A DNA stretch of 64,000 nucleotides from the NCBI GenBank assembly GCA_965204795.1, contig OZ242012.1, forward strand, positions 595,639 through 659,638, read 5' to 3'. Positions 4,035-51,983 of the stretch are shown here, piece by piece (the first letter of the stretch is position 1; the number at the start of each line of letters is the position of its first letter). The notes beneath the pieces were generated by a model. The model searched no databases and was not told the origin of the DNA. It was given only the letters and a program-made list of their open reading frames with translations. Source of the DNA: Thermodesulfobacteriota bacterium (GTDB taxonomy: Bacteria > Desulfobacterota_D > UBA1144 > Nemesobacterales > Nemesobacteraceae). The position numbers and the translations under genes were made by a program.

Positions 4035-4448
4035 CGACTGACTTCGTGGACATCGGAGACGACAACTTTCGTCGTTATAAGCTCCGTATTCACGGAAAGT
4101 CGTGCAATGGACTCTGAAGCAATCCTAATTTTGTGGCAGTTCATCGTGTTCCGATTGCAAGCCTTCAGGCAAAGAAGCTGTTTCCCGCCCGGTTTTTATC
4201 GAAGGTATGTCAATATCCCGCTGGCTGTAGTGTTTGTGAAGGACGAAAGATTTTTCAGGTACAAAAGGTTGGATTCCTTTCATCAAGTTCTTGAAACTCT
4301 TTTTCGCTCTGGACAGTTTTTTAGATGCTTTCTTGATTGATCGAGGTTTTCTTTCTGCTTCCCTCTTTGCGAATCTATAAAATGATAATACCAATGTGCT
4401 TGGAATTCAAACGAGTATCTTCAAAGTCCCTTCCCCCATCGGATCAAC

Positions 4449-5987
4449 TCATTTCTCGTCTTCCTTTATTCTGGAAAAAAGATTTTCTCCCTTTTTTACT
4501 CCTGTACCGGCCTTGGTGTATCCCCAATCGGTACTCGCGGGACCCGCCTCCGAAGAAAGACCGAGCTTGGTACGGATTTCCCGGGAAGTCTCCGGAAGGA
4601 AGGGATAGATGAGAAGGGAGATTCCCCTTACGCTCTCGGCGAGCGTCCAGAGCACCGTCCCGAGCCGTTCGCGCTGTTTTTCCTCTTTTGCGAGTTTCCA
4701 CGGAGCGGCGTTGTCCACGTACCTGTTTACGAGCCCTATGAATTCCCATATAGCCGAAAGCGCCCTGCTGAACGCCAGTTCTTCGAGATGCCCGGCGACC
4801 CGCTCCGCCGTTTCGCCGTAAGCCTTCTCTATTTCCCTTTCGCCCTCCGACGGCTCTCCGGGTCTCGGAACGGCTCCCCCGAAGTATCTCTCTATCATTC
4901 CCAGGGAGCGGCTCACCAGGTTTCCGAGATCGTTCGCGAGATCTCCGTTTACCCTTCCCACGAGCGATTTCCTCGAGTAGTCCCCGTCCTGTCCGAAAGG
5001 TATTTCCCGAAACAGGAAGTAGCGGAATATCTCGGAACCGAATTCCTCCACCACCCTGTACGGGTCCACCACGTTTCCGAGCGACTTGGACATCTTCTCC
5101 CCCTCGACCGTCCACCATCCGTGGGCGAACACCGTTTTCGGAAGCGGGAGTCCCGCCGACATCAGAAAAGCTGGCCAGTAGACGGCGTGGAACCTCAGTA
5201 TGTCCTTTCCCACGAGGTGCATGTCCGCGGGCCAGAACTTCCCGAAGTTCCCGTCTTTTTCCGGAAAACCCAGGGACGTGAGGTAGTTTGTGAGGGCGTC
5301 GAACCACACGTAGATCACGTGATCTTCCGATCCCGGAACCGGGATCCCCCACGAGAAATCGGTCCGGCTCACGCTGAGGTCCCGAAGACCTCCCTCGACG
5401 AAGCTCACCACCTCGTTTCTCCTGTAGTCCGGCTTTACGAACTCGGGATGCTCCGCGTAGTGGCGGAGAAGCGGTTCCTGGTATCTTGAGAGGCGAAAGA
5501 AGTAGCTTTCCTCCTTTATCTTTTCGAGCTTCGGGCGGCTTTGCTCGGGAAGCTTCATCAGTTCTTCGACCTGGGTCTCGGTTACGAACGACTCGTTTCT
5601 GACGTCGTACCAGCCCTCGTATTCGTCGAGGTATATGTCCCCGCTTTTTTCCACCAGCCTCCATATTTCGCGGACCGCTTCCCTGTGGCGGGGCTCCGTG
5701 GTCCTTATGAAGTCGGTGTTCGATATTCCCAGGAGTTTCCAGAGGTCTTCAAACTTTCGAACGACCCTGTCGGCAAGCTCTGCGGGAGCCTCTCCGCTGG
5801 CTTCGGCGGTCTGCTCTATCTTTCTTCCGTGCTCGTCCGTCCCCGTCAGAAAATAGACTTCGTGTCCCGAGGCGGACCTGTGTCTCGCGATCGCGTCGGC
5901 CGCTATGGTGGTGTAGGCGTGGCCTATGTGCGGCACGTCGTTCACGTAGTATATGGGGGTCGTGACGTAGAAGCGTTTTTCATCCAT
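4449..5987 (-). CDS. metG: Methionyl-tRNA synthetase (short form, no C-terminal tRNA-binding extension)
   Basis: HIGH motif (PHIGHAYT), KMSKS, class I core; 512 aa. Confidence 0.95.
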   Translation of the reverse strand: MDEKRFYVTTPIYYVNDVPHIGHAYTTIAADAIARHRSASGHEVYFLTGTDEHGRKIEQTAEASGEAPAELADRVVRKFEDLWKLLGISNTDFIRTTEPRHREAVREIWRLVEKSGDIYLDEYEGWYDVRNESFVTETQVEELMKLPEQSRPKLEKIKEESYFFRLSRYQEPLLRHYAEHPEFVKPDYRRNEVVSFVEGGLRDLSVSRTDFSWGIPVPGSEDHVIYVWFDALTNYLTSLGFPEKDGNFGKFWPADMHLVGKDILRFHAVYWPAFLMSAGLPLPKTVFAHGWWTVEGEKMSKSLGNVVDPYRVVEEFGSEIFRYFLFREIPFGQDGDYSRKSLVGRVNGDLANDLGNLVSRSLGMIERYFGGAVPRPGEPSEGEREIEKAYGETAERVAGHLEELAFSRALSAIWEFIGLVNRYVDNAAPWKLAKEEKQRERLGTVLWTLAESVRGISLLIYPFLPETSREIRTKLGLSSEAGPASTDWGYTKAGTGVKKGENLFSRIKEDEK

Positions 5988-6457: not shown

Positions 6458-7698
6458 AAATCGCTCCGGGAACCCCGCTTGATGTATTCCTGCGCTGGGA
6501 CGCGGACGACGTTCAGCAGGTCGGCAGGCTCGCCTACAGGGACCGGGTCGCCTACCTTGAGTACGACGAGGATTTCATCAGGTCCGGACTTGAGATTTCG
6601 CCCGTCCGCCACGAACCCGAAGCGGGACTTTCGCGGCCGTACGTGGCGGACGTTTTCGAGGGTCTCCACGGAGCGTTCAACGACAGTCTTCCGGACGGCT
6701 GGGGGCGGCTGCTCGCGGACCGGCGGGCCCGCCAGCTCGGAACAGAACCGGAAACGCTCACGCCGCTTGACCGCCTCGCGTGCGTCGGAAGCGACGGAAT
6801 AGGGGCGTTGTGCTATTCGCCTTCCGTCGAGGCGTGGGAGGAGGGTGAAAACCTGGTTGACCTGGACCGGCTGGCCGCCGGTTCGAGACTGGTTCTCGAA
6901 GGGGAAGTCGGCGAAGTGCTCTCGGTTCTCGGGCGTGCCGGAGGTTCTCCCGCGGGGGCGCGCCCCAAGGCCCTTGTGGCTCTCGGAGACGACGGCCGCG
7001 CGGTCCACGGAACGGACGAAGCGCCCTTGTCGTACGAGCACTACCTGGTCAAGTTTCGGGGACGGGGAGACCCGTGGGACACGGCCGCGGTGGAAAAGGC
7101 GTACTCCGCGATGGCCGAATGTTCGGGAGTCGAGGTTCCCGAGACGAGACTGCTTGAGGGTCGCGACGGAAATCTTTTCTTCGCGAGTCGCCGGTTCGAC
7201 AGGGAAGGGAGCCGTCGCCTTCACGTTCATTCCGCGAGCGGGCTGCTGTATTCGGACATTCGATTTCCCGCGCTCGATTACGGGGACCTTGTTCTGCTTA
7301 CCCGAATCGTGACGGGCGACCATCGTGAATGCAGGAAAATGTTCGCGCTGGCCGTCTTCAACGTCCTGTCGCACAACCGCGACGACCACGCCCGGCAGTT
7401 CAGTTTCATTATGACGCGCGACGGCGCATGGAGACTCGCTCCGGCCTACGACCTTACGTGTTCGCCGGGTCCCGGCGGGCAGCACTCGACTTCCGTTCTC
7501 GGGCGTGGCGGGGACGTTACGCGACAGTGCCTCGTCGAGCTTGGACTGAAGGCGGATATGGAACGTGCGGAAGTCTCCCGGGTCATCAAGCGGGTTGAAT
7601 ACGGCGTTTCAAAATGGCCGGCGTTTGCCCGGGAGTGCGGGGTCGGCGGCGACTCGACGCGCGAAACAGCCCGCTTTCTCGACGAAGCGAGACTTTGA
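6454..7698 (+). CDS. hipA: HipA-family serine/threonine kinase toxin
   Basis: 414 aa. N-terminal HipA coupling domain with LPDGWGRLL. C-terminal kinase-like motif NVLSHNRDDHARQFSF. Four-nt overlap with hipB. Confidence 0.85.
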   Translation: MKIAPGTPLDVFLRWDADDVQQVGRLAYRDRVAYLEYDEDFIRSGLEISPVRHEPEAGLSRPYVADVFEGLHGAFNDSLPDGWGRLLADRRARQLGTEPETLTPLDRLACVGSDGIGALCYSPSVEAWEEGENLVDLDRLAAGSRLVLEGEVGEVLSVLGRAGGSPAGARPKALVALGDDGRAVHGTDEAPLSYEHYLVKFRGRGDPWDTAAVEKAYSAMAECSGVEVPETRLLEGRDGNLFFASRRFDREGSRRLHVHSASGLLYSDIRFPALDYGDLVLLTRIVTGDHRECRKMFALAVFNVLSHNRDDHARQFSFIMTRDGAWRLAPAYDLTCSPGPGGQHSTSVLGRGGDVTRQCLVELGLKADMERAEVSRVIKRVEYGVSKWPAFARECGVGGDSTRETARFLDEARL

Positions 7699-16621: not shown

Positions 16622-17752
16622 ATGATAAAACGGACGGTTGAAAGCAGGCTTCTCCGCCTGGCGGGACAGTATCCCGTCGTTACGGTCACGGGGCCCAGGC
16701 AGTCGGGCAAGACGGTTTTATCCAGAAAATGCTTTCCGGAACATCTCTATCTCAATCTGGAGAAACCGGATACGCGCGAATACGCCAGGAAAGATCCCGT
16801 GGGCTTTCTCGCCCAGTCGGAGAAAATGGTTATAGACGAGGTTCAGCGCGTGCCCGACCTTGTTTCCTACGTTCAGGCCGCGGTCGATGAAAGCGGCGAA
16901 GCGGGACGGTTTATTCTGACCGGCAGTCATCAGTTCGGGCTGACCGAAGTGGTCTCCCAGTCGCTGGCGGGACGCACGGTGCTGATAACCCTGCTTCCGT
17001 TTTCACTGAGGGAGCTGGGAGATACATCTCCGTATGAAAACCTGATTTACAGGGGATTCTACCCTAGGATAATAGACAGGAAGCTGAACCCCACCGAGGC
17101 GCTTTCGTTCTACGTCGATACGTATGTCCGGAGAGATTTGAGAGAGATAAAGGAAATCAGGAACCTGAGCCGGTTCGAAGATTTTCTTCGGCTTTGCGCC
17201 GCCAGCGTGGGACAGATGCTCAACATGTCCCGCATGGCGAACGATGTCGGCGTCGCCGTAAATACCGTAAAGGCGTGGATTTCCGTTCTGGAAGCGAGCT
17301 ATGTTGTATATCTGCTCCGGCCGCATTACAGGAATTTCAGAAAAAGAATCGTGAAAACTCCCAAGCTTTACTTCTGCGACGTGGGACTTGCTTCTTATCT
17401 TCTGGACATAAAGAAGGTCGAGCACGTGAAGTCGCACCCGCTTCGGGGAATGCTTTTTGAAAATCTTGTCGTCGTGGAAAAAATCAAGCGGAAGTTCAAC
17501 AACGTCGAACGGCCTTCCCTGTATTTTTTCAGGGACAACACGGGCAACGAGGTCGATCTTCTGGAAGAAGAGGGAAGTCATGTTGTTTCCTACGAGATAA
17601 AAATGGCGAAGACCCTGGACTCGAACCAGTTCAGGGGGCTTAACTTCTACAGGAAGCTCAATCCCGAAAACAGCAGATCGGTTCTTGTTTACACGGGTTC
17701 CGAGAAGACAACCCGGTACGGGCACGAATGCCTGCCTTTCCGGCATGTCTGA
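16622..17752 (+). CDS. AAA+ ATPase of the COG1373 family (AAA_14 plus DUF4143-like C-terminus)
   Basis: Walker A TGPRQSGKT, Walker B MVIDEVQ, C-terminal YFFRDNTGNEVDLL motif. TATAAT-like element upstream. It sits on the left flank of a low-GC islet. Confidence 0.75.
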   Translation: MIKRTVESRLLRLAGQYPVVTVTGPRQSGKTVLSRKCFPEHLYLNLEKPDTREYARKDPVGFLAQSEKMVIDEVQRVPDLVSYVQAAVDESGEAGRFILTGSHQFGLTEVVSQSLAGRTVLITLLPFSLRELGDTSPYENLIYRGFYPRIIDRKLNPTEALSFYVDTYVRRDLREIKEIRNLSRFEDFLRLCAASVGQMLNMSRMANDVGVAVNTVKAWISVLEASYVVYLLRPHYRNFRKRIVKTPKLYFCDVGLASYLLDIKKVEHVKSHPLRGMLFENLVVVEKIKRKFNNVERPSLYFFRDNTGNEVDLLEEEGSHVVSYEIKMAKTLDSNQFRGLNFYRKLNPENSRSVLVYTGSEKTTRYGHECLPFRHV

Positions 17753-17909
17753 TATATACTAATCGGTTGAACCCAAGGTGCTTGAGACCCTGCTACGGTC
17801 TTTGTTTCTTGGCGGATCGCCCGCAGGCCCGGTATACGGGTTGTTCGGAAGAATAACGGCCTGAACGGTTTCTGGCCGAAGCCGTCGAGAATAACGAGGA
17901 GGATATGAG

Positions 17910-18281
17910 ATGGAAATGCCGGAGAAGTTTTCCTTTAGGGTTCTCGAAGAGAAAATTATCAGAAAGCTGTTTTACAAAAAGGATGTTATTAGGAAGCTGC
18001 TTTACAGGGAAGAAGGAGAATATGTAGCCCACTGCCTGGAGTTTGATCTGGTTAACACTTCAACGAGGTCGTTTGAAGAGGCTTCCGCGGAGTTGAATGA
18101 ATTGCTGGAAGACTATGTGAGTTACGCGTGCGAGTACAACGAGTTCCAAAATCTCTACAGGTTCGCTCCCGTTAAATACTGGATAATGCTTCAGTTCGGG
18201 ACGCGTCGCGAAGATTCCTCCGAACAAGAACATGTCAACGTCTGCGACATGACCTACAGAATTGAAACATCCGCCGTGTAG
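17910..18281 (+). CDS. HicB-like / UPF0150-like small protein (RNase H-like antitoxin-type fold); function uncertain
   Basis: 123 aa with EGEYVAHCLEFDLVNTSTRSFEEASAELNELLEDYV, resembling the HicB N-domain pattern. AGGAGGA SD 7 nt upstream. Low-GC DNA. Confidence 0.45.
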   Translation: MEMPEKFSFRVLEEKIIRKLFYKKDVIRKLLYREEGEYVAHCLEFDLVNTSTRSFEEASAELNELLEDYVSYACEYNEFQNLYRFAPVKYWIMLQFGTRREDSSEQEHVNVCDMTYRIETSAV

Positions 18282-18473
18282 ATGCGTCGGGCCGGAGGAC
18301 TCCGCCCGAAACGGAGTTTTCCGCATGTGTTGAGAGAAGCGGCGAGGCTCGGAAAAGATTTACTACGGGGGAAGGTAGAGTTAGAATAATCCAGAGTCTG
18401 TCTTTGCGGAACTTGACGGAACTGTCCAATTTCTGTCAGGGCTGCGGATTGCCGGAGAAGCGGCGGGGGAATT

Positions 18474-19625
18474 GTGAAAAAACACTTTTTCAGATCTCTT
18501 GAGATAGAGAATTTTCGCGGTATCAGAACCTCCAGAATCGACAACTTTGCGAGGGTCAATCTTTTTGTGGGCGAGAACAGCTGCGGAAAGACAACCATTC
18601 TGGAATCGCTGTTCCTTCTGGCGGCCATCCGGGACCCTAGCAGGATGGTTAACATTCAGAATTCCAGAGGAATATATCTTACGGAGCCCAGAGACTTGGC
18701 AGATTTCTTTTTCGAACAGAAGCATGAAAACAATCTGCGTTTAACCGGAACTCATGAATCCGGGAAGAGAGAACTGACAATCAACGCTTTATACAGAGAC
18801 TCGCGTGCTTCTCGAACAGACAGTCAGCAGGAAAATGGAAGCGGAAACAACCATATTCTCAAAGTAAACAACATGGATTCCAAAACGGATGACTGCCTGC
18901 TTGGATTGGGATACACATTCTCGGTTTCCTGCAACGGGGACGGGGGCCCCGACCAGCATAATTCCAAAGTTGTTGCGACTTGGAGCGGTTCTCCTGTCGA
19001 GAGGGCGAGATTCGAAACATATATTGACGAGAAATATAAAGAGAAATCTTTGAACAGCGTTGCCGTGATTAGAGGGTCAAAGGATTCATACGAACACCTT
19101 CCCGTTGACGGCATTGGTAAAATGCTTCAGGAAAAACGTAAAGATATTCTACTGGAAAGTCTTCAGAAGATTGATCCCAGAATCCAGGACATACAGGTCA
19201 GCACTGCAGGAGTTGTTCTCGCGGATATTGGAGTTAAAAGCTTCATTCCTTTGAATCTCCTGGGAGACGGATTGCTTCATATGGTCAATCTTGTTTCTCA
19301 TGTTGACGATACCAGGGGTGGAATTCTGATGATTGATGAATTCGGTTCGGGTTTTCATGTCTCCTGCGTTGAATACATCTGGAAAGTTCTCATAGAGCAG
19401 TCGGGAAAATACGACACACAGGTATTCATGACTACTCACAGCAAGGATGTGGTGGAAGGTCTGGCGGGCTTGCATGAACGGGAACCCGATCTTTTTTCCG
19501 AAGATGGGGACGACGTCGCGTGTTTTTATCTGGGGAAAAACAGCGAGGGTCGAGTGAAAGGATACAGATATTCTCCTGAGGATATAAAGCAAGTTCTGAA
19601 ATCAGACACAGATATTCGCCACTAA
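18474..19625 (+). CDS. OLD/PARIS-AriA-like ABC-type ATPase (AAA_15/AAA_21 family)
   Basis: GTG start. N-terminal LEIENFRGI, Walker A GENSCGKTT, Walker B ILMIDEFGSGFH, H-loop TTHS. 383 aa, low GC. Confidence 0.85.
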   Translation: MKKHFFRSLEIENFRGIRTSRIDNFARVNLFVGENSCGKTTILESLFLLAAIRDPSRMVNIQNSRGIYLTEPRDLADFFFEQKHENNLRLTGTHESGKRELTINALYRDSRASRTDSQQENGSGNNHILKVNNMDSKTDDCLLGLGYTFSVSCNGDGGPDQHNSKVVATWSGSPVERARFETYIDEKYKEKSLNSVAVIRGSKDSYEHLPVDGIGKMLQEKRKDILLESLQKIDPRIQDIQVSTAGVVLADIGVKSFIPLNLLGDGLLHMVNLVSHVDDTRGGILMIDEFGSGFHVSCVEYIWKVLIEQSGKYDTQVFMTTHSKDVVEGLAGLHEREPDLFSEDGDDVACFYLGKNSEGRVKGYRYSPEDIKQVLKSDTDIRH

Positions 19626-19626
19626 A

Positions 19627-20226
19627 ATGTCTCAGAAAGTGTGTATTTTTGTTGAAGGGAAGGAGGATTCTAATTTCCTGGAATCCTACGTTGGTTATCT
19701 GGGCTATGAACTGCCGGAAATAAGACCCATAGGCGGGAAAGACAATCTTAAAGGGAATCGTCTGGAGATTGCCAAAAAATTAGATGAAGAAGACGCAAGG
19801 GTGCTGATTGTATTTGACGCCGATGATGATTATGGGAAGACGAAAGATGAGGCAAAGAGAACTATCCAAGACAAGGTGCAGGTAAACGACGGAAATTCCC
19901 GTCTGGATTTTTTTCTTTTCCCCAACAATCAGGACTCGGGAAACCTGGAAGACCTGCTCGAAAAAATCATAAAGTCCGAACACAAGGGTATCTTTGATTG
20001 TTTTGAAGCCTACAAGGAATGTCTGACGGAGCGGGACCCTTCTTACCTCCATCCGGACAAGAAGGCTAAAATTTATACATACAAGCAATCTCTGGGAGCA
20101 GTGAGAGAAGGGAGAGAATATCATTTCAGTCCGAAATACTGGGAATTCGAGAACAGTTCTCTCGACCCGCTGAAAAGTTTTCTTTGCGAGAATTTTCGCA
20201 AGAGCGGTCTGGAAAAAGTACGATAG
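19627..20226 (+). CDS. Small Toprim-like protein (DUF4276/DUF4435-like by recollection), putative nuclease partner of the ATPase
   Basis: 199 aa. ATG is 1 nt after the ATPase TAA. Toprim-like acidic motifs CIFVEGKEDSNFL (conserved E) and LIVFDADDD (DxD). Confidence 0.6.
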   Translation: MSQKVCIFVEGKEDSNFLESYVGYLGYELPEIRPIGGKDNLKGNRLEIAKKLDEEDARVLIVFDADDDYGKTKDEAKRTIQDKVQVNDGNSRLDFFLFPNNQDSGNLEDLLEKIIKSEHKGIFDCFEAYKECLTERDPSYLHPDKKAKIYTYKQSLGAVREGREYHFSPKYWEFENSSLDPLKSFLCENFRKSGLEKVR

Positions 20227-20284
20227 AACTAAAAATTCATCTTCAAAGTCTCCGGCGGAGAGTCCCACTCTGCGAGGCGGGAAA

Positions 20285-20635
20285 ATGATACGGGTAACAG
20301 ACGAGATGCTTCGAGACATGGTGAAAGTCATAGTGGATGAAGTCGACCCCGAGCAGGTGATACTCTTCGGTTCACATGCCCGCGGCGACGCGTCCGCGGA
20401 CTCGGACGTGGATTTTGTCGTTATTGAATCGTCTCCGTTCGGAGCGGGCAGGGACCGGCGTCTTGAAGCTGCGCGTCTGTGGCGCGCGCTGGCGGATTTT
20501 GACGTTCCAAAGGACATTCTGCTGTACAGCGGCGACGAAGCTGAGTACTGGCGCGACTCTATCAACCATGTCCTCGCGCGCGCACTTCGCGAGGGGAAAA
20601 TTCTCTACGAGAGACCTTCAACCGATGAGGCTTAA
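20285..20635 (+). CDS. Nucleotidyltransferase (MNT/Pol-beta superfamily) domain protein
   Basis: GSHARGDASADSDVDFVVI motif, 116 aa. Its 3' end overlaps the rluB-like start by 12 nt. Confidence 0.8.
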   Translation: MIRVTDEMLRDMVKVIVDEVDPEQVILFGSHARGDASADSDVDFVVIESSPFGAGRDRRLEAARLWRALADFDVPKDILLYSGDEAEYWRDSINHVLARALREGKILYERPSTDEA

Positions 20636-21380
20636 CAGATTTCTTTCCGCCTGCGGCGTGACGTCGAGAAGAAAGGCCGACAACCTGATAAACGCGGGGC
20701 GGATTACCGTAAACGGCGAGGTAATCCGTACTCTGGGACATACCGTGGACGAGTCTTCGGACACCGTGCTTCTCGACGGAAAGCCCGTGCGTCCCGAAGA
20801 AAAAAGATACGTGATGCTGAACAAACCTCCCTTTTACCTCACTTCGCTGAAATCCATGGAAGACGGGAAGGAAACGATAACGTCTTTTCTCAAGGGCATA
20901 AGACAGAGGGTCTATCCGGTGGGCAGGCTGGACTACGACTCGGAAGGGCTTCTGCTTCTAACAAACGACGGCGAGCTCGCGAACAGGATACATCACCCGA
21001 AGTACATGGTCGTGAAAACCTACCTTGCGGAAGTCTCGGTAAAGCCCGCGGCCGGGCTTGAAGAAAAGCTGAAAAGGGGAACCGAGATCGAAGGCCGGTT
21101 CACCGAGCCCGACGCTCTTGAAATTCTCGACCGCTCCCCCCGGGGCGCGCGGATAAGCGTCTCCTTTCACGAGGGGAGAAAGCACCTCGTGAAGAAATAC
21201 TTCGAGGCGTTCGGTCTCAGGGTGACCAGACTCATGAGAATTTCCTGCGGCGACATAAGCCTGGGAGAGCTTCCGAAGGGAAAGTGGCGCGACCTCAGTC
21301 CCGCGGAACTTCGCGGGATACGGAAAATGACGGGACTTCTGTCCGTAACCGGAAACGGGACGCGGGAGGACGCGCCGTGA
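20624..21380 (+). CDS. rluB: RsuA/RluB-family pseudouridine synthase (S4 domain plus PseudoU_synth_2)
   Basis: MRLNRFLSACGVTSRRKADNLI S4 N-terminus, catalytic GRLDYDSEGLLLLTNDG. The longer listed ORF (from 20376) overlaps the MNT gene, so an internal start was chosen. Confidence 0.8.
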
Positions 21381-31922: not shown

Positions 31923-32128
31923 GCCGTTTCTTCGCCCAGATGCTGTTCGATCGTTCCTATCATGCCGTCGACGCGCTCCACGAGGCTCTCCTTCTCGCTC
32001 TCGAGCGCGGCCACCTTCTCCCTGAGAACCCTTACCTCCTCGAGAAGGGTGCGGTTCTGCTCGGCGGTCTTGGCGTTTTTGTCTACGTACTCTCTGATTC
32101 TTCTCTCAAGAATCTCCAGCGATTCCAT
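31919..32128 (-). CDS. zapB: ZapB-like coiled-coil protein
   Basis: 69-aa all-helical heptad pattern, immediately upstream of zapA and translationally coupled to it. Confidence 0.45.
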   Translation of the reverse strand: MESLEILERRIREYVDKNAKTAEQNRTLLEEVRVLREKVAALESEKESLVERVDGMIGTIEQHLGEETA

Positions 32129-32274
32129 GAATGAAATTGTATACCGTGGCGGGATTATTGCAAGGACTTCGGTTTCGGAGTGGCAAATCAGGTATTTTTT
32201 AACTGTCGGTTTCTAGTCTGCGTTTCAAAGCCGAAAACGCGACGGATAAGGACTGTTCGGATGTCCGTACTTGT

Positions 32275-33183
32275 ATGTGGCGATCTGGCGGGAAAATGGA
32301 ATTCGGAAAACTTAAGACATTGATTCGCAAAGAATCAAAAAGCGATGACAAGACCTTTGATGAATCTTCAGCCCGTATTCAGGAGAAGATATTTGCCTTG
32401 TCAAAGAAGCAGACAGTTCCGCTGTTGAAAAATATAGGAATTATTCCGGAATCGATTCATCATGATTCATCTGAGGAAAAATTGTTTGCCAAAGTTGCCG
32501 ATATTCTTTTAGCCAAGGCATTTCAGGAACTTGGACTTTCCGCGAATGTAAACGACGAACGTGCGAATTGCGCGGATGTGGTCGCGAAGAGTAAAATTCA
32601 TAAATATTCACTGGTCGCCGACGCCAAGGCGTTCCGCCTCAGCAGGACTGCGAAGAATCAGAAAGATTTTAAGGTTAAGTCTATGGTAGACTGGAAAGGC
32701 AGGCACGATTATTCGGTCTTGGTCTGTCCCTTCTATCAATATCCCAGGAATAGAAGCCAGATTTACGGTCAAGCCCTTGATGGAAACGTATGTCTTCTCA
32801 GCTGGGAACATCTGGTTCTTTTTCTGGAAAACAACATCAAAGAAACAAAAAGGCTCTCTCTTCGAAAATTGTGGAACATCAGCGACGAATTGTCGTCAAA
32901 AGTCACCGTGAAAAACAAGGACAGGAATACAAACTTTCATCAGGATGGTAACTTGCTGATACAAAAACATGTTGGATTAAAGGAAGATATTTTCGGCAGC
33001 GTGTTTGAATTATGTAGAAAAGTAACAGTTGCGCGAGGCAGGTCCGAGATTAAATTCTGGAAAAGCGAAATAGACAGAATAAATGGATTCACCAGGAAAC
33101 AAGCCATAACGGAACTATTGGACTCTATGAAAATCGGGAAAAAGATTTCCACTATTCAGAAATATATTGACTCACTAGCATAG
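32275..33183 (+). CDS. Candidate Type II restriction endonuclease (PD-(D/E)xK-like)
   Basis: 302 aa in a low-GC islet, immediately upstream of a DNA MTase. D-x(15)-VADAK arrangement (D...(D/E)xK). Confidence 0.5.
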   Translation: MWRSGGKMEFGKLKTLIRKESKSDDKTFDESSARIQEKIFALSKKQTVPLLKNIGIIPESIHHDSSEEKLFAKVADILLAKAFQELGLSANVNDERANCADVVAKSKIHKYSLVADAKAFRLSRTAKNQKDFKVKSMVDWKGRHDYSVLVCPFYQYPRNRSQIYGQALDGNVCLLSWEHLVLFLENNIKETKRLSLRKLWNISDELSSKVTVKNKDRNTNFHQDGNLLIQKHVGLKEDIFGSVFELCRKVTVARGRSEIKFWKSEIDRINGFTRKQAITELLDSMKIGKKISTIQKYIDSLA

Positions 33184-33192
33184 GAATCAAGC

Positions 33193-34149
33193 GTGAAATT
33201 CAAAGACAAGATAAACACCGTGATAAATGCCGACAGCATAGAAGAACTGGACTTGTTTCCCGATGAAAGCGTACACCTTATCCTGAGCGACATCCCCTAC
33301 GGTATTGGAGTTGATGAATGGGACGTGCTTCACGAAAACACAAATTCGGCATACCTGGGCAACAGTCCCGCCCAGCAGAAAGCGGGACCCGTATTCAAAA
33401 AGAGAGGCAAACCATTAAACGGATGGTCGGAAGCGGACAGACAGATACCGAGGCAATATTACGACTGGTGCATGAAATGGACGGCAAAATGGCTTCGCGT
33501 GCTGAAGCCCGGGGGCAGCGCGGTTGTATTTGCGGGAAGAAGGTTTGTCCATCGTTGCATCTGCGCTTTTGAGGACGCGGGTTTCACTTACAAAGACATG
33601 ATTGCGTGGCACAAGGAAAAAGCTCCGCACAGGGCACAGAGGATTTCCGTTGTTTACGAGAAAAGAGGCGACGAGTTTAACAGGGAAAGATGGGAAGGCT
33701 GGAGAGTCGGGAACCTGAGGCCGGTTTTCGAACCAATACTCTGGTTTTCCAAGCCGTACGCCATTGGCGGAACGATCGCTGATAACATGCTGGAACACGA
33801 AACAGGCGCGTTTAACGAAAAGGGTTTCCTGAAATATACGCATGCTCCCGACAACTGCATCTCCGTTGCCGCTGCAAAAAACGATACGGGTTTGCATCCA
33901 ACGCAGAAACCCCTGAAACTGATGAACGCGCTGATTGAGCTGACGACGAACGAAGACCACGTTGTACTCGACCCTTTCTGTGGAAGTGGTTCAACACTGG
34001 TTTCCGCTTACAATCTCGGGCGAAAGTTCATTGGAATTGAATCGGAGAAAACTTATTACGAGATTGCTTTTGAAAGAATTCGTTCAGTTGCCGACAACTT
34101 TGAACGCTCCCTCTTTAGCGAGATGCAGTTGCACGACCATGATTTCTGA
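33193..34149 (+). CDS. Beta-class DNA amino-methyltransferase (N6-adenine or N4-cytosine)
   Basis: Motif IV SDIPYG near the N-terminus and motif I VLDPFCGSGST near the C-terminus (circularly permuted beta order). 318 aa, low GC. Confidence 0.85.
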   Translation: MKFKDKINTVINADSIEELDLFPDESVHLILSDIPYGIGVDEWDVLHENTNSAYLGNSPAQQKAGPVFKKRGKPLNGWSEADRQIPRQYYDWCMKWTAKWLRVLKPGGSAVVFAGRRFVHRCICAFEDAGFTYKDMIAWHKEKAPHRAQRISVVYEKRGDEFNRERWEGWRVGNLRPVFEPILWFSKPYAIGGTIADNMLEHETGAFNEKGFLKYTHAPDNCISVAAAKNDTGLHPTQKPLKLMNALIELTTNEDHVVLDPFCGSGSTLVSAYNLGRKFIGIESEKTYYEIAFERIRSVADNFERSLFSEMQLHDHDF

Positions 34150-48971: not shown

Positions 48972-49397
48972 ATGGAAAAAAACGGTTCTCTTCATCACGT
49001 GGCCTTGGCGGTGAGGGACATCGCCGCGGCCGAGGAGCTTTACTCGGAACTGCTGGGTCTTCGGGTCGCGCACAGGGAGGTCGTGGCCGACCAGGGGGTC
49101 AGGACGTCCATGCTTCTTCCCCCGGGCGGCGAGGGCGCGGCGGTGGAGCTTCTCGAACCTCTGGACGAAAACTCCCCGGTTTCGAAATTCCTGGAGAAAA
49201 GGGGAGAGGGAATTCACCACGTGTGCTTTCTGACCGAAGACGTCGAGGCGTCGCTTAGAAGGCTGGAAAAAAAGGGAGTCAAACTCATAGACGAGCATCC
49301 GAGACCCGGGTCCTGCGGCACGGAAGTCGCCTTCATACACCCGAGGTCGATGAACGGAGTGCTCGTGGAACTCGCGCGGAAGACGGAGGGGCGGTAG
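48972..49397 (+). CDS. mce: Methylmalonyl-CoA epimerase (VOC/glyoxalase family)
   Basis: LHHVALAVRDI ... GEGIHHVCF paired VOC modules, 141 aa. Confidence 0.8.
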   Translation: MEKNGSLHHVALAVRDIAAAEELYSELLGLRVAHREVVADQGVRTSMLLPPGGEGAAVELLEPLDENSPVSKFLEKRGEGIHHVCFLTEDVEASLRRLEKKGVKLIDEHPRPGSCGTEVAFIHPRSMNGVLVELARKTEGR

Positions 49398-49431
49398 GTC
49401 CGCGCCAGCTTTTGCCGTCGGCCCCGCTTTT
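49386..49431. repeat. Left copy of an imperfect 45-58 bp direct repeat flanking the inserted cassette (contains mce stop codon plus a degenerate tatA 3' end)
   Basis: ggcggtaggtccgcgcCagcttttgccgtcggccccgctttt. Identical to 51776-51818 except one C/T; upstream of both copies there is a weaker gaag(a/g)... similarity. Confidence 0.8.
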
Positions 49432-49546
49432 CCCGAGTTCGGCGGTCTGGAAAAGTAACATACCGACATCACGCGATTTCATTTTTCGCGAGACGCTGCG
49501 AAACGCCGTTTCCGGATTTTTCAGGCGGTCTAATCCGCCGAACTCG
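49431..49546. repeat. 14-bp perfect inverted repeat enclosing about 88 bp at the left inner end of the cassette
   Basis: cccgagttcggcgg (49431-49444) and ccgccgaactcggg (49533-49546). Confidence 0.6.
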
Positions 49547-49579
49547 GGAGACGAGTAAAGCGCGGCATTGCCAAGGTCT

Positions 49580-50089
49580 TTACGCCAGCTTCAGTCTGCC
49601 TCCGCATTTGATCAATCTGATGGCTTCGGCTTTCCCGTGAAAACCCACCTTGCCGATACTCTTCAGTCTTGTCCTTTCCGCCTTGTTCGGCGACCTGCCG
49701 AAAACCAGGACGGGAAGGAATCTCGCTTTTATGTTCTCCGAAACGATCGTTTCCGCGAAACGGGCCCCGGCTTCAAGCTGCTTGACGACCTCGCCGGCTT
49801 TGTACCTGCCGCTTTTCAGTTCCAACGGCACTATCCAGCCCTTGTTCCCGGCACGGCCCGCCACGAAAAGATAATCGCAGCGGGGCCGGCCCTCGGGAAG
49901 CGGCGAACCCCGCTTGTCGAAATCGATAATCAATTGCGGGGTCGGCGTACTTTCGATCAGCAAACCGCAACCGTCTTTTTCGCACTTTCCACGCCTGCGC
50001 TCGATACACTTGCCGTCGACCTGCCGGCGAAACATCTCCGCGAGTTCCGTCACCGTTTTTGCTCCATTCCGCTGGAGATGTCGGCCCAC
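49580..50089 (-). CDS. Small Cys-rich protein, possible PD-(D/E)xK-like nuclease effector (second gene of cassette)
   Basis: 169 aa. Cys cluster (C-x7-C-x4-C), D(CDYLF) ... IVPLELKSG (D...ExK-like). Overlaps or immediately follows the ATPase gene. Confidence 0.45.
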   Translation of the reverse strand: MGRHLQRNGAKTVTELAEMFRRQVDGKCIERRRGKCEKDGCGLLIESTPTPQLIIDFDKRGSPLPEGRPRCDYLFVAGRAGNKGWIVPLELKSGRYKAGEVVKQLEAGARFAETIVSENIKARFLPVLVFGRSPNKAERTRLKSIGKVGFHGKAEAIRLIKCGGRLKLA

Positions 50090-51552
50090 TTGTTGTGCAG
50101 GGCGACGGCAACGTCGTCAAAATCCGTCGGAAACAGGCCGGATTCTTCGTCGAGAGGAATTTCCTTCACGACCGACCCTTTGGGCCGGCGCTTCCGCTCA
50201 AACAGCCACGCGCCCACCTGGTCGGGTCGCAGTGCTACGTCGTCCTTGTCTATTTTCTTTCTGGCAGACTTGGAAAGTTTGGACAAACGCACCAGGTTGG
50301 CGAGCTCTTCGAGCAGCCATTCGCTGTGAGTGGTGATCATTACCCTGACGCCGGAATTCACCACCGCCGCGATCTGCCGGGCGAACTCCACCTGCATGGC
50401 GGGGTGCAGGTGAGATTCCGGTTCTTCGACGATCAGGACATTTCCCGGAAGGACGATATGCCGAAGGTACAGCGCCACCGGGGCGAGTTCCGATACCATG
50501 GACGAGGCGTTCGTCAGAGGCATGTCCGCCTTCCATCCTTCCGGTCTGTAGGTGAAAACCGGAAAACCGGCCGCCGACCTGCCGACGCGCACCGACCCTC
50601 CGAGAACTCGGTTCTCGATCCGCTCGACCAGGTCGCTTCGGGATGCGCCCCGCCGCTTGCCGTTGGGTTCAATGCTGAAAAGCTGTCGAAGAAAATCCGT
50701 TATGACGCCCGAGGTCACCGGGTCCGGCCGCTGTCCCGTCGACGCGGAACTGATCAGTCCTTGTATGAAAGCCTTGTGCGTGGACATCACGCCGCCGCGG
50801 TCCGCCGGGAGATAGAACGCGGGAAGGTGCAAGGGACCGAATACTTCGGGCAGGTGGACGGCCGCCAGGTCAATGACAAGTTTCAAACACTCTTTCTCGC
50901 TCAGGTCGGTCATTGAAGACGCGGGGAACATCGCCAGGTCGGGCAGCTTTCCGACGCTGCCTGAATCGAGCCGCATCGGAGCGTTCTCGTCCAGGTCGAC
51001 GTCAAGTCCGGTTCCCCGCGAATCGATCGTCAGGACATGCGAAAGCTTTTCCGAATCGTCGGGAAGAGGCTTTCGGAAGACGACGCGCGCTTCGCCGCTC
51101 CCTTTACGGACCAGTTTTCCGGTCTCGCCGCCAAGTTCAAAACACCTGTCAAGTTCGTTGCCAATAGAGTCGCCGAGCTTGTTAAATCCTCTGAATACGG
51201 AACGGACCGTATCCGCGACCCGGGAGGGGACCGAAACATTCCGTTCGTCCGGCGAGCCCGGTCCTCCCGCAGCTATCAGTTCCGCCCATTTGACAAGATC
51301 GTCCCTAGCCTCCCCGCTTAACTTCGATGTTACTCCCTCCGTCGACGACAGAGCGGCGCCCTGAATCGCAGTGTGCGCGTCCAGGCCGAAAAACCTGTGC
51401 AACGCGTAGAGCAGAATCGCCAGATACGACTTGCCCGTGTTGCTCGGTCCCACGAATACGGTCAGGGGACGAAGGTCTATCTTCGCCCTGACAATGGGCC
51501 CGAAATCGTTCACTTCGAGCTCGGAGAAACTTTGGGGTGACGAGTTCTTCAT
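50050..51552 (-). CDS. AAA_15/AAA_21-type ABC ATPase (first gene of cassette)
   Basis: LEVNDFGPI N-terminus, Walker A GPSNTGKSY, Walker B LIVEEPESHLHP, H-loop TTHS. 500 aa from the internal ATG with GAGGAAG SD. The listed ORF extends to 51624. Confidence 0.8.
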   Translation of the reverse strand: MKNSSPQSFSELEVNDFGPIVRAKIDLRPLTVFVGPSNTGKSYLAILLYALHRFFGLDAHTAIQGAALSSTEGVTSKLSGEARDDLVKWAELIAAGGPGSPDERNVSVPSRVADTVRSVFRGFNKLGDSIGNELDRCFELGGETGKLVRKGSGEARVVFRKPLPDDSEKLSHVLTIDSRGTGLDVDLDENAPMRLDSGSVGKLPDLAMFPASSMTDLSEKECLKLVIDLAAVHLPEVFGPLHLPAFYLPADRGGVMSTHKAFIQGLISSASTGQRPDPVTSGVITDFLRQLFSIEPNGKRRGASRSDLVERIENRVLGGSVRVGRSAAGFPVFTYRPEGWKADMPLTNASSMVSELAPVALYLRHIVLPGNVLIVEEPESHLHPAMQVEFARQIAAVVNSGVRVMITTHSEWLLEELANLVRLSKLSKSARKKIDKDDVALRPDQVGAWLFERKRRPKGSVVKEIPLDEESGLFPTDFDDVAVALHNKWADISSGMEQKR

Positions 51553-51775
51553 GTCTTCACTTCCTCGTCCCGACATGCGTCGACCGGACCGACAACGACA
51601 CGAGTCGTTGGGCACTCTCGGCAAACGACGTCAATAGTTTAAACGGCTTCGCCTGATTACCAACAGTCTGCCGTTCCGGCCATGACGTTTCCTTGTTGCC
51701 CCGCGCTTCGCTCGCACTTTGCCATGACTGCTTGCTCCCGGCCTTCCGGCGAGCGGGCGAACCGAAGAAGGAAGA

Positions 51776-51818
51776 AGGCGGTAGGTCCGCGCTAGCTTTT
51801 GCCGTCGGCCCCGCTTTT
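51776..51818. repeat. Right copy of the direct repeat (contains the intact tatA 3' end on the minus strand plus a degenerate mce 3' end)
   Basis: ggcggtaggtccgcgcTagcttttgccgtcggccccgctttt. The reverse strand encodes ...GADGKS-stop of tatA. Confidence 0.8.
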
Positions 51819-51983
51819 TTCCCCGGCGCTCTCGGCCGGGTCGTCTTCCCTGAGAGACTTCCTGAATCCCCTTATTCCCCTGCCGAGGGAGGAGCCGATG
51901 TCCCCGAGCCTGCTGGGGCCGAAGATGACCAGCAGGATGGCCAGTATTATGGCCAGTTCCCATATGCCGAATTGTCCGAACAT
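51792..51983 (-). CDS. tatA: Sec-independent protein translocase TatA
   Basis: MFGQFGIWELAIILAILLVIFGPSRL, 63 aa. Confidence 0.85.
   Translation of the reverse strand: MFGQFGIWELAIILAILLVIFGPSRLGDIGSSLGRGIRGFRKSLREDDPAESAGEKSGADGKS

Follow-up and report, generated by a model that had tools for sequence, protein, structure and literature searches.

PD-T4-4 originates from E. coli and was selected for defence against T4 (Vassallo, 2022; PMC9519451). The system is a pair of an ABC ATPase and a PD-(D/E)xK nuclease (PMC10952713; bioRxiv 10.1101/2025.07.10.664194). In vitro, no activity of its complex was seen on any DNA substrate (bioRxiv 10.1101/2025.07.10.664194), which leaves DNA cutting by the nuclease a presumption even for this reference system. 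WonAB, encoded on the WASA-1 prophage of Vibrio cholerae, combines an OLD-type ABC ATPase and a nuclease with a PD-(D/E)xK variant. It works by lysis-independent abortive infection, for which neither gene can be spared and the motifs of the ATPase as well as K71 of WonB are essential, and WonB is predicted to dock on the C-terminal extensions of WonA (PMC12137116). The same study places WonAB in a larger family, not yet characterised, whose inserts vary and whose nuclease is at times a different one, and cites an operon denoted as 'OLD-ABC ATPase + novel REase' (Krishnan et al., 2020, as cited in PMC12137116). In addition, the PADLOC library (PADLOC-DB v2) harbors PDC-x systems, which are unpublished candidates (PMC11811056). 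No mention of one of these, PDC-M47, was found in the literature searched.

A gene pair of similar design is located in the window, the stretch of 64,000 nt analysed here, which comes from a Dadabacteria genome. It consists of two co-oriented genes on the minus strand, encoding an ABC ATPase of 500 aa and a small protein (Table 1), and sits on a 2345-bp insert. We read it as an anti-phage system of two components that belongs to the 'OLD-type ABC ATPase + small PD-(D/E)xK nuclease' kind and assign this function a probability of about 0.7. By appearance, an ABC ATPase plus a small PD-(D/E)xK protein in an insertion is indeed the two-gene defence module proposed in an earlier note on this DNA. 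That note had further regarded the partner type as undescribed for this ATPase class, a view that falls with the PD-T4-4, WonAB, and 'OLD-ABC ATPase + novel REase' pairs; the pair is a divergent branch of an already described kind and no new class.

Table 1. Features of the gene pair and of the insert carrying it (nucleotide positions refer to the window, aa to the ATPase).
Feature	Position	Strand	Remarks
Left copy of 42-nt direct repeat	49390..49431	.	includes glyoxalase/epimerase stop (49395-49397); TGG at the position of the tatA stop in the other copy
119-nt hairpin, perfect 15-bp stem	49431..49549	.	abuts left repeat; terminator or recombination-site candidate
Small PD-(D/E)xK (restriction-endonuclease-fold) protein, predicted	49580..50053	-	157 aa; proposed effector
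Motif KQLEAG, small protein	49766-49783	-	
Motif PLELKSG, small protein	49808-49828	-	
Motif RCDYLF, small protein	49865-49882	-	
Motif IDFDK, small protein	49913-49927	-	
ABC ATPase, OLD-like AAA_15/AAA_21 type	50050..51552	-	500 aa from ATG; proposed sensor/regulator subunit
Walker A GPSNTGKS	aa 35-42 (51427-51450)	-	
YLPADRGG	aa 247-254		Q-loop position
ASSMVSEL	aa 349-356		signature-like
Walker B/D-loop VLIVEEPESHLHP	aa 372-384 (50401-50439)	-	
H-loop TTHS	aa 407-410		
Leader upstream of ATPase, about 100 nt	51553..51651	-	conserved at DNA level
Insert-specific right-end segment	51652..51776	-	unrelated in sequence to the pair's other copies
Right copy of 42-nt direct repeat	51777..51818	.	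final 27 nt of tatA with its TAG stop and 15 further nt

The ATPase starts with MKNSSPQSFSELEVNDFGPI, and its set of ABC nucleotide-binding motifs is complete. Its earlier assignment to the OLD-like AAA_15/AAA_21 type is borne out by Pfam (AAA_15, 1.5e-19; AAA_21, 1e-10) and by the located Walker A, Walker B, and TTHS motifs. The ATG start agrees with the homologue consensus MxDxxxQxxLELEVxNFGPI; a longer version from TTG at 51624 is off this consensus. A PDB sequence search with the single ATPase sequence gave no match, and a search with the ATPase profile gave matches in the Walker-B region only. The NCBIfam PtuA model reaches the pair with 0.0028, far under the model cut-off. The leader in front of the ATPase shows 74-76% nucleotide identity to the corresponding upstream regions of loci L005 and L104, including the block GAAGCCGTnnAAA, and is probably a promoter or a 5' UTR. 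It contains neither a sigma-70 consensus match nor an Rfam match, and Rfam gave no match on the whole insert either. A promoter and terminator scan yielded no promoter-like site and a single terminator-like match, which lies inside the small gene and below shuffle expectation.

The TGA stop of the ATPase gene and the GTG start of the small-protein gene overlap by 4 nt, read as GTGA, and the two genes are translationally coupled via this overlap. Whereas the earlier note let the small ORF begin at 50089 (169 aa), it is better read as 157 aa from the GTG at 50053, since homologues comprise 155-160 aa and this start creates the GTGA overlap; gene callers set the identical 4-nt-overlap start in L001, L103, L104, and L100. 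In every relative examined (L001, L005, L100/L101, L102, L103, and L104), the two genes adjoin on the same strand in the order ATPase, small protein, and in metagenome loci the ATPase gene is immediately 5' of its partner in 9/9 testable cases. The small ORF is a real, conserved gene, as had been presumed: an exhaustive profile search gave 1380 representative clusters, and purifying selection acts strongly across the family.

Neither Pfam nor NCBIfam matches the small protein, in line with the earlier statement that it lacks Toprim and HNH signatures. Searches with Pfam, NCBIfam, and PADLOC gave no match to Toprim, DUF4435, or DUF3226 in either protein, and those with Pfam and PADLOC no match to HNH in the pair. 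The restriction-endonuclease-like fold suspected from the D...ELK arrangement is recovered in the predicted structure (pLDDT 89.7). The model displays a PD-(D/E)xK fold with the core order alpha-beta-beta-beta-alpha-beta, in which strand 2 opens with an Asp and strand 3 carries (D/E)xK. The partner is thereby predicted to possess a restriction-endonuclease fold with an intact D...ExK site, whose residues are near-invariant in an alignment of 96 relatives (D60 in 94/96, E78 in 95/96, and K80 in 91/96); D44, D46, and Q92 are conserved as strongly. The C-x7-C-x4-C cluster described before is present (C16, C24, and C29), but C24 is kept in only 56/96 relatives and the conserved set is another one, namely C16 (91/96), C29 (96/96), C59 (91/96), and C150 (94/96). 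These four cysteines are probably ligands of a structural metal (Zn or Fe-S) that would staple together the N- and C-terminal parts of an unusually small nuclease. A PDB sequence search with the small-protein profile gave no match. A Foldseek comparison with viral structures gave nothing significant (best E 0.03).

PD-T4-4 resembles the pair in being a two-gene operon on mobile DNA, with an AAA_15-type ABC ATPase followed by a small PD-(D/E)xK protein, and the B proteins share the series D...(K/R)xCD...(D/E)xK(S)...Q(L/I)E in register. The best PADLOC models for the ATPase are PD-T4-4_A (3.6e-41, 139.8 bits) and PDC-M47A (1.1e-31). The match to PD-T4-4_A is made up of two aligned stretches (the best at 286-496), the ends alone being aligned, whereas true members score 304-772 bits end to end. 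The ATPase is also longer (500 aa vs 462-474 aa) and carries another middle insert; conversely, the B protein is shorter (157 aa vs 198-210 aa), and three of its four conserved cysteines are absent from PD-T4-4_B. PD-T4-4 is hosted by enterobacterial plasmids, ICEs, and P2-like phages, while the family studied here is found in Dadabacteria, Acidobacteriota, and Nitrospinota. Moreover, PD-T4-4 occurs in phage and plasmid collections, whereas small-protein relatives were found neither in plasmids or phages (tblastn) nor in IMG/VR (family pattern).

For the small subunit, the PADLOC models of PD-T4-4_B gave no match at E<=1 to the window protein or to 24 relatives. PDC-M47 is the only library family that it touches, with weak and partial matches: 24/25 family members match PDC-M47B weakly (best 1.3e-5), and the window protein does so with an E of 0.002 over residues 58-97 only. 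Genuine PD-T4-4_B proteins, encoded by pKPN6, pSCU-105-5, and a P2-like phage of Vibrio, likewise match these PDC-M47B models (1e-4 to 1e-7). A profile comparison by hhalign of 96 family members with 17 PD-T4-4_B proteins aligns 110 columns at an E of 0.0028 and a probability of 11%, with the motifs IDxD/TLDF, RCDYLF/KSCDLVI, ELKxG/DQKSK, and QLxAG/LQLENS (family/PD-T4-4_B) in register. Given these values, homology of the effectors is likely, not proven. Assignment of both proteins to one named system, which the earlier note had listed as the outcome speaking against novelty, is thus seen for half of the pair: the ATPase lies near PD-T4-4_A and PDC-M47A, but the B protein reaches no named model significantly, and the pair is therefore regarded as an unnamed sister branch and not as an already named system. 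The likeness to WonAB concerns the pairing of an OLD-type ABC ATPase with a PD-(D/E)xK protein and is drawn from the published description; WonAB is prophage-borne in Gammaproteobacteria, while the window pair occupies a small chromosomal insert of an uncultured lineage. OLD, Gabija, and PARIS differ by their Toprim effector, and Septu and retron-PtuAB by their HNH effector, from the separate small protein with a predicted REase fold.

The insert is bordered by two copies of a 42-nt direct repeat (41/42 identity, spacing 2387), with two matches seen vs 0 expected in 100 shuffles. In 21/23 related Dadabacteria loci examined the site is empty, i.e. the glyoxalase gene and tatA converge directly and do not enclose the pair, and the empty site of L006 shows one homologous copy of the repeat. 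The 'freshly integrated cassette' of the earlier note is hence a true insertion, but 'freshly' is overstated because three genomes of ~99% identity share it. Homology of its right side to L005 and L104 ends at 51651/51650, and the right-end segment beyond has no further copy among the sequences searched, the sister genomes excepted. At the left end, the hairpin arms are 100% complementary, with a single-stranded DNA fold of -31.2 kcal/mol (z -3.0) and an arm sequence unique in the window; neither L104 nor L005 shares this hairpin. At other copies of the pair no flanking repeats were found, apart from two paralogous genes without Pfam match around L098.

The insert carries no mobility gene, and an integrase is absent among the called genes within +-8 kb (identical locus L003). 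An integron gene cassette was considered and rejected in view of this lack of an integrase, the perfect 15-bp stem, an R-box one base off, and the 42-nt target duplication. The insert is not compositionally foreign, with an overall GC of 0.587 vs 0.590 in the window; only its GC3 lies below that of neighbouring core genes. A scan of the window for tRNA genes came back empty, which rules out a tRNA-targeted island. In relatives, the gap between tatA and glyS varies but is filled largely by metabolic or membrane genes and does not qualify as a defence hotspot. A bolder reading takes the 157-aa Cys4 protein as the founder of its own widespread family of effectors (~1400 clusters, formed at 50% identity) missed by current defence-finder models, a minimal metal-stapled REase-fold nuclease with a target and trigger unlike those of PD-T4-4/WonAB that can also travel as a recombinase-free 2.3-kb mini-cassette with a 42-bp target duplication and a terminal 119-nt hairpin. 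We consider this combination doubtful; if true, such a mini-cassette might hint at a mode of defence-gene transfer not described so far.

The pair moves between unrelated genomic sites, often beside other defence or mobile-element genes. Its neighbours are a reverse transcriptase and a helicase in L005; AAA_15/DUF3226, DUF1156/DUF499, and HEPN genes in L102; RelE and Mrr fragments in L100; and transposases and resolvases in L001. The genome from which the window comes holds a second, paralogous copy adjoining a reverse transcriptase.

By analogy with WonAB, the ATPase would dimerise head to head around ATP, and its C-terminal part would hold the nuclease. Once phage replication has begun, a cue from the phage may then alter the ATPase cycle and license the nuclease, whose cutting of nucleic acid would stop phage production and sacrifice the infected cell. 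Either DNA or RNA/tRNA could be the target. An effector acting as an RNA/tRNA nuclease, as in PARIS AriB, PrrC/RloC, and a recent OLD tRNase, and thus defending via translation shutdown and not as a DNase, is possible, though we lean away from it: most of the top structural neighbours of the small protein are DNA endonucleases, and its sequence holds nothing separating RNA from DNA specificity. These neighbours include NucS and a Holliday junction resolvase, and those of the ATPase the heads of SMC, Rad50, and RecF, as would suit a housekeeping role in DNA repair or recombination by a RecF- or SbcCD-like ABC ATPase with a resolvase-like nuclease. Such a role is highly improbable, as the pair is absent at the orthologous site, was not found within the 15-kb loci of 23 related species, occupies unrelated sites in different genomes, exists as a paralogous copy beside a reverse transcriptase, decays readily, and has a GC3 of 0.70-0.71 vs 0.78-0.85 in neighbouring core genes.

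This decay bears on two further explanations. The nuclease gene is broken by independent lesions in 3/6 nearest lineages, a pattern expected of a costly, toxic effector. Three genomes of ~99% identity share a frameshifting 47-bp deletion (window equivalent 49728-49774), two of them with an additional 1-nt insertion, and the pair is also damaged in the next clade (L098 and L099). In L002-L004 and L098, the nuclease is lost while the ATPase ORF is still open, which fits a toxic nuclease. The ATPase might restrain this nuclease within an addiction (toxin-antitoxin-like) module that stabilises a small mobile cassette and persists through the killing of cells that lose the ATPase, not through defence against phage. 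Several neighbourhoods of the pair are mobile elements, the loss of WonB when WonA is inactive indicates tight coupling, and Pfam describes AAA_21 as 'putative AbiEii toxin, Type IV TA system'. We nevertheless hold an addiction module to be unlikely, since PD-T4-4 and WonAB, the relatives put to the test, were both recovered and confirmed as defences against phage and the window insert offers no mobility gene to stabilise; the two readings are not exclusive, because abortive-infection systems and TA modules overlap in behaviour. The same lesions could mark the window copy as a non-functional remnant heading for loss, its intact ORFs reflecting recent ancestry and not selection. This is, in our estimate, quite unlikely: neither window ORF is truncated, every catalytic and ATP-binding residue is in place, intact pairs also exist in L103 (96%-identical contig) and L104 (70% homologue), and the family is under strong purifying selection. 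A two-component anti-phage module is kept as the preferred reading.

As such a module, the pair extends the class of ABC ATPases with a small REase, typified by PD-T4-4 and WonAB, well beyond Proteobacteria to uncultured lineages such as Dadabacteria, Acidobacteriota, and Nitrospinota. Current HMM-based defence annotation overlooks a large branch of this class because its effector has diverged past the existing B-subunit models. Together with the family alignment and the confident model, the D/E/K/Q and Cys positions that are conserved offer concrete targets for mutagenesis in work on the mechanism of this class and its type systems. Finally, the clean insertion site with its 42-nt duplication and the recurrent breakage of the nuclease gene among nearly identical genomes constitute a record of the gain of a module, followed by its disarming.

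By sequence comparison, the ABC ATPase and the small co-oriented protein encoded beside it appear to form a divergent, unnamed branch of the PD-T4-4/WonAB/PDC-M47 class, with a putative role in defence. The small protein is the product of a genuine gene and is predicted to adopt a PD-(D/E)xK fold. The earlier note had read its ORF as 169 aa. It is taken here as 157 aa, since homologues are 155-160 aa long, the GTG overlaps the ATPase stop as GTGA, and in four independent relatives the gene callers begin this ORF at the corresponding site, with a 4-nt overlap. A word-indexed search yielded 24 homologues; when 1.84 billion representatives were searched exhaustively with a profile, 1380 matched (E<=1e-3), 853 of them at 1e-10 or below and 245 at 1e-30 or below. 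The two genes are coupled: wherever the arrangement can be judged, an ATPase gene directly precedes that of the small protein in the same orientation (loci L001, with a 45% identical small protein, L005, L100/L101, L102, L103, L104, and 9/9 testable metagenome loci).

Features of the window discussed here (nucleotide positions, or residues of the ATPase where marked aa)
Feature	Position	Strand	Remark
AAA_14 + DUF4143 ATPase, 403 aa	16541-17752	+	PADLOC candidate PDC-S01, 6e-99
AAA_15/AAA_21/AAA_23 protein, 383 aa	18474-19625	+	PADLOC AbiLi, 6e-53
DUF3226 protein, 199 aa	19627-20226	+	AbiLii, 7.8e-11
HindIII-family restriction endonuclease	32275-33183	+	Pfam, 1.8e-65
N6/N4 DNA methylase	33193-34149	+	3.8e-46
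Glyoxalase/methylmalonyl-CoA-epimerase-like gene	48972-49397	+	flanks pair
42-nt repeat, left copy	49390-49431
Small nuclease-like protein, 157 aa	49580-50053	-	GTG start at 50053
ABC ATPase, 500 aa	50050-51552	-
Walker A, GPSNTGKS	aa 35-42
Q-loop position, YLPADRGG
Signature position, ASSMVSEL
Walker B/D-loop, VLIVEEPESHLHP	aa 372-384
H-loop, TTHS	aa 407-410
ATPase leader, ~100 nt	51553-51651	-	5' of ATPase start
42-nt repeat, right copy	51777-51818
tatA	51792-51983	-	flanks pair

Among 96 diverse members of the small-protein family, the acidic, Lys and Gln residues D44 (90), D46 (95), D60 (94), E78 (95), K80 (91), and Q92 (95) are conserved, as are C16 (91), C29 (96), C59 (91), and C150 (94). 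The D...ExK arrangement proposed earlier is thus intact and set in strands of a confident model (pLDDT 89.7, pTM 0.88), with D60 at a strand start, E78-x-K80 in the next strand, and Q92 on the long helix that follows. The proposed Cys cluster survives in its outer members, but the middle one, C24, is retained in only 56/96; the four conserved Cys are predicted probably to bind a structural metal. No Toprim or HNH signal was found in the pair with Pfam, PADLOC, and NCBIfam models, as the earlier note had supposed for the small protein. The ATPase contains AAA_15 (1.5e-19) and AAA_21 (1e-10) domains (Pfam); its motifs, checked at codon level, are intact, with residues invariant across 54 full-length homologues, and the top PDB match of the family profile is an OLD nuclease (6p74, 2.9e-5).

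Domain models assign the pair to a named system in part only: the nearest PADLOC models of the ATPase are PD-T4-4_A (3.6e-41) and PDC-M47A (1.1e-31), followed by NsnB, AriA, GajA, and Old, but the small protein matches PDC-M47B alone (0.002), a model matched by 24/25 family members (best 1.3e-5). True PD-T4-4 pairs of the plasmids pKPN6 and pSCU-105-5 and of a P2-like Vibrio phage, used as positive controls, reached 4.5e-233 (A subunits) and 3.6e-93 (B subunits). The control B subunits also match the same PDC-M47B models (1e-4 to 1e-7), which makes PD-T4-4_B and PDC-M47B relatives of each other; the window family appears to lie further out. An hhalign comparison of 96 family members with 17 PD-T4-4_B sequences aligned 110 columns with all four motifs in register, at a support of only E 0.0028 (probability 11%). 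PD-T4-4_B has only one of the four conserved Cys, next to the catalytic Asp. The phage control (Vibrio phage 1.202.O, NC_048066.1:4187-6218; A 6.4e-185, B 6.5e-18) lies between the phage repressor and integrase genes and is annotated merely as 'AAA family ATPase' and 'hypothetical protein'.

PD-T4-4 combines an ABC ATPase with a PD-(D/E)xK protein (PMC10952713; bioRxiv 10.1101/2025.07.10.664194; bioRxiv 10.1101/2024.01.29.577857); its complex forms higher-order assemblies and cut no DNA substrate in vitro (bioRxiv 10.1101/2025.07.10.664194). WonAB consists of an OLD-type ABC ATPase and a variant PD-(D/E)xK nuclease, requires both active sites, and acts by lysis-independent abortive infection; its authors see a relationship with PD-T4-4 and with the 'OLD-ABC ATPase + novel REase' operon, present in ~1% of genomes as cited there (PMC12137116). 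Because such partners are described, the premise that this ATPase class pairs only with Toprim or HNH proteins is outdated, and the partner type is not new. The observation of the earlier note is borne out with small corrections, and its interpretation in part: the two genes are an ATPase-nuclease pair of defence type, the insert that carries them is real, and the kind of system has been described before.

The window, L005, and L104 are homologous at the DNA level from a point ~100 nt before the ATPase start codon to near the nuclease stop, a stretch that includes no conserved third gene; the evolutionary unit is therefore the leader plus two genes. The leader, 74-76% identical to those of L005 and L104, contains the block GAAGCCGTnnAAA near -95 and gave no Rfam or sigma-70 consensus match. 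Around other copies, the gene content is of the kind usual for defence islands or mobile DNA: an RVT_1 reverse transcriptase, a large DEAD/ResIII helicase (1057 aa), and an HTH protein at L005; AAA_15/DUF3226, NOV_C, DUF1156/DUF499, and HEPN genes at L102; RelE and Mrr fragments at L100; transposases and resolvases at L001. L005 (6001-8036) is a second, paralogous pair (ATPase 54% identical, intact 155-aa nuclease) in the 2.13-Mb genome that also carries L003, a sister of the window locus.

The pair is mobile. In this Candidatus Dadabacteria/Thermodesulfobacteriota MAG lineage, the flanking genes converge directly across a gap of 10-50 nt that holds neither cassette gene in 21/23 related Dadabacteria loci (L026 and L028, where RNase G alone matched, are the two uninformative ones), and the closest species (L006) has a single copy of the repeat-homologous sequence; the cassette is therefore a true 2345-bp insertion that duplicated its target. 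The 42-nt direct repeat (41/42 identical, spacing 2387, no match expected by chance) takes in the terminal 27 nt of tatA, stop codon included, and, on the other strand, the glyoxalase-gene stop. The left copy is directly adjoined by a 119-nt hairpin whose 15-bp stem is perfectly paired. The insertion is real, but the earlier note overstated its freshness, and it is not confined to the window strain: three ~99% identical genomes share the insert and the repeat mismatch. Overall GC is not deviant (0.587 vs 0.590 for the window); the pair has a lower GC3 (0.70-0.71) than the core genes around it (0.78-0.85). No recombinase is encoded in the insert or called within 8 kb at L003, and no other copies of the two insert ends occur among the sequences searched, apart from the sister genomes. 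Candidate routes are a trans-acting integrase, a decayed larger island, or a RecA-mediated single crossover of a circle bearing the 42 bp; an integron-like insertion was rejected. Beside this site, the tatA-glyS gap is variable too: it measures 57 nt in the window and L006, and 1-4.3 kb in other Dadabacteria (L007, L012, L013, L015, L016, L025, L043), where it holds genes for an NAD-epimerase-like protein, a 265-aa membrane protein, an 873-aa lipoprotein, and a 407-aa ATPase.

The window also carries an AbiL-like system, so assigned from its AbiLi and AbiLii matches, in a low-GC patch (~17000-21000; 0.44-0.53 vs 0.59), directly downstream of the PDC-S01-like gene; the AAA_15 + DUF3226 combination also adjoins a homologue of the studied pair at L102. 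A Type II R-M pair occupies another low-GC patch (32000-34000; 0.44-0.48).

The pair is intact in the window, L103 (96% nt identity), and L104. The sister genomes (L002, L003, L004) retain an intact ATPase ORF, and all three have lost 47 bp of the nuclease gene (window equivalent 49728-49774); a further 1-nt insertion (~50011) is present in two. The gene caller calls nothing there. In the next clade, ~20 nuclease codons remain behind an intact ATPase at L098, and at L099 the ExK segment is lost and the ATPase frameshifted. These three independent disabling events among six near lineages fit a costly, potentially self-toxic effector. At L098, paralogous uncharacterised genes (4318-4803 and 6690-7142; 161 and 150 aa; 72-76% nt identity; no Pfam match for either) flank the 69%-identical ATPase, spaced 2369 nt apart, near the repeat spacing of the window.

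If the pair works like WonAB and PD-T4-4, the nuclease would be held by a dimer of the ATP-bound ATPase until a phage cue arising once replication has begun releases or activates it; cleavage of nucleic acid, possibly RNA, would then abort infection. The interest of the pair lies mainly in the size of its unannotated family, its Cys4 minimal nuclease, the recombinase-free insertion between 42-nt repeats, and an effector that has been disarmed more than once.
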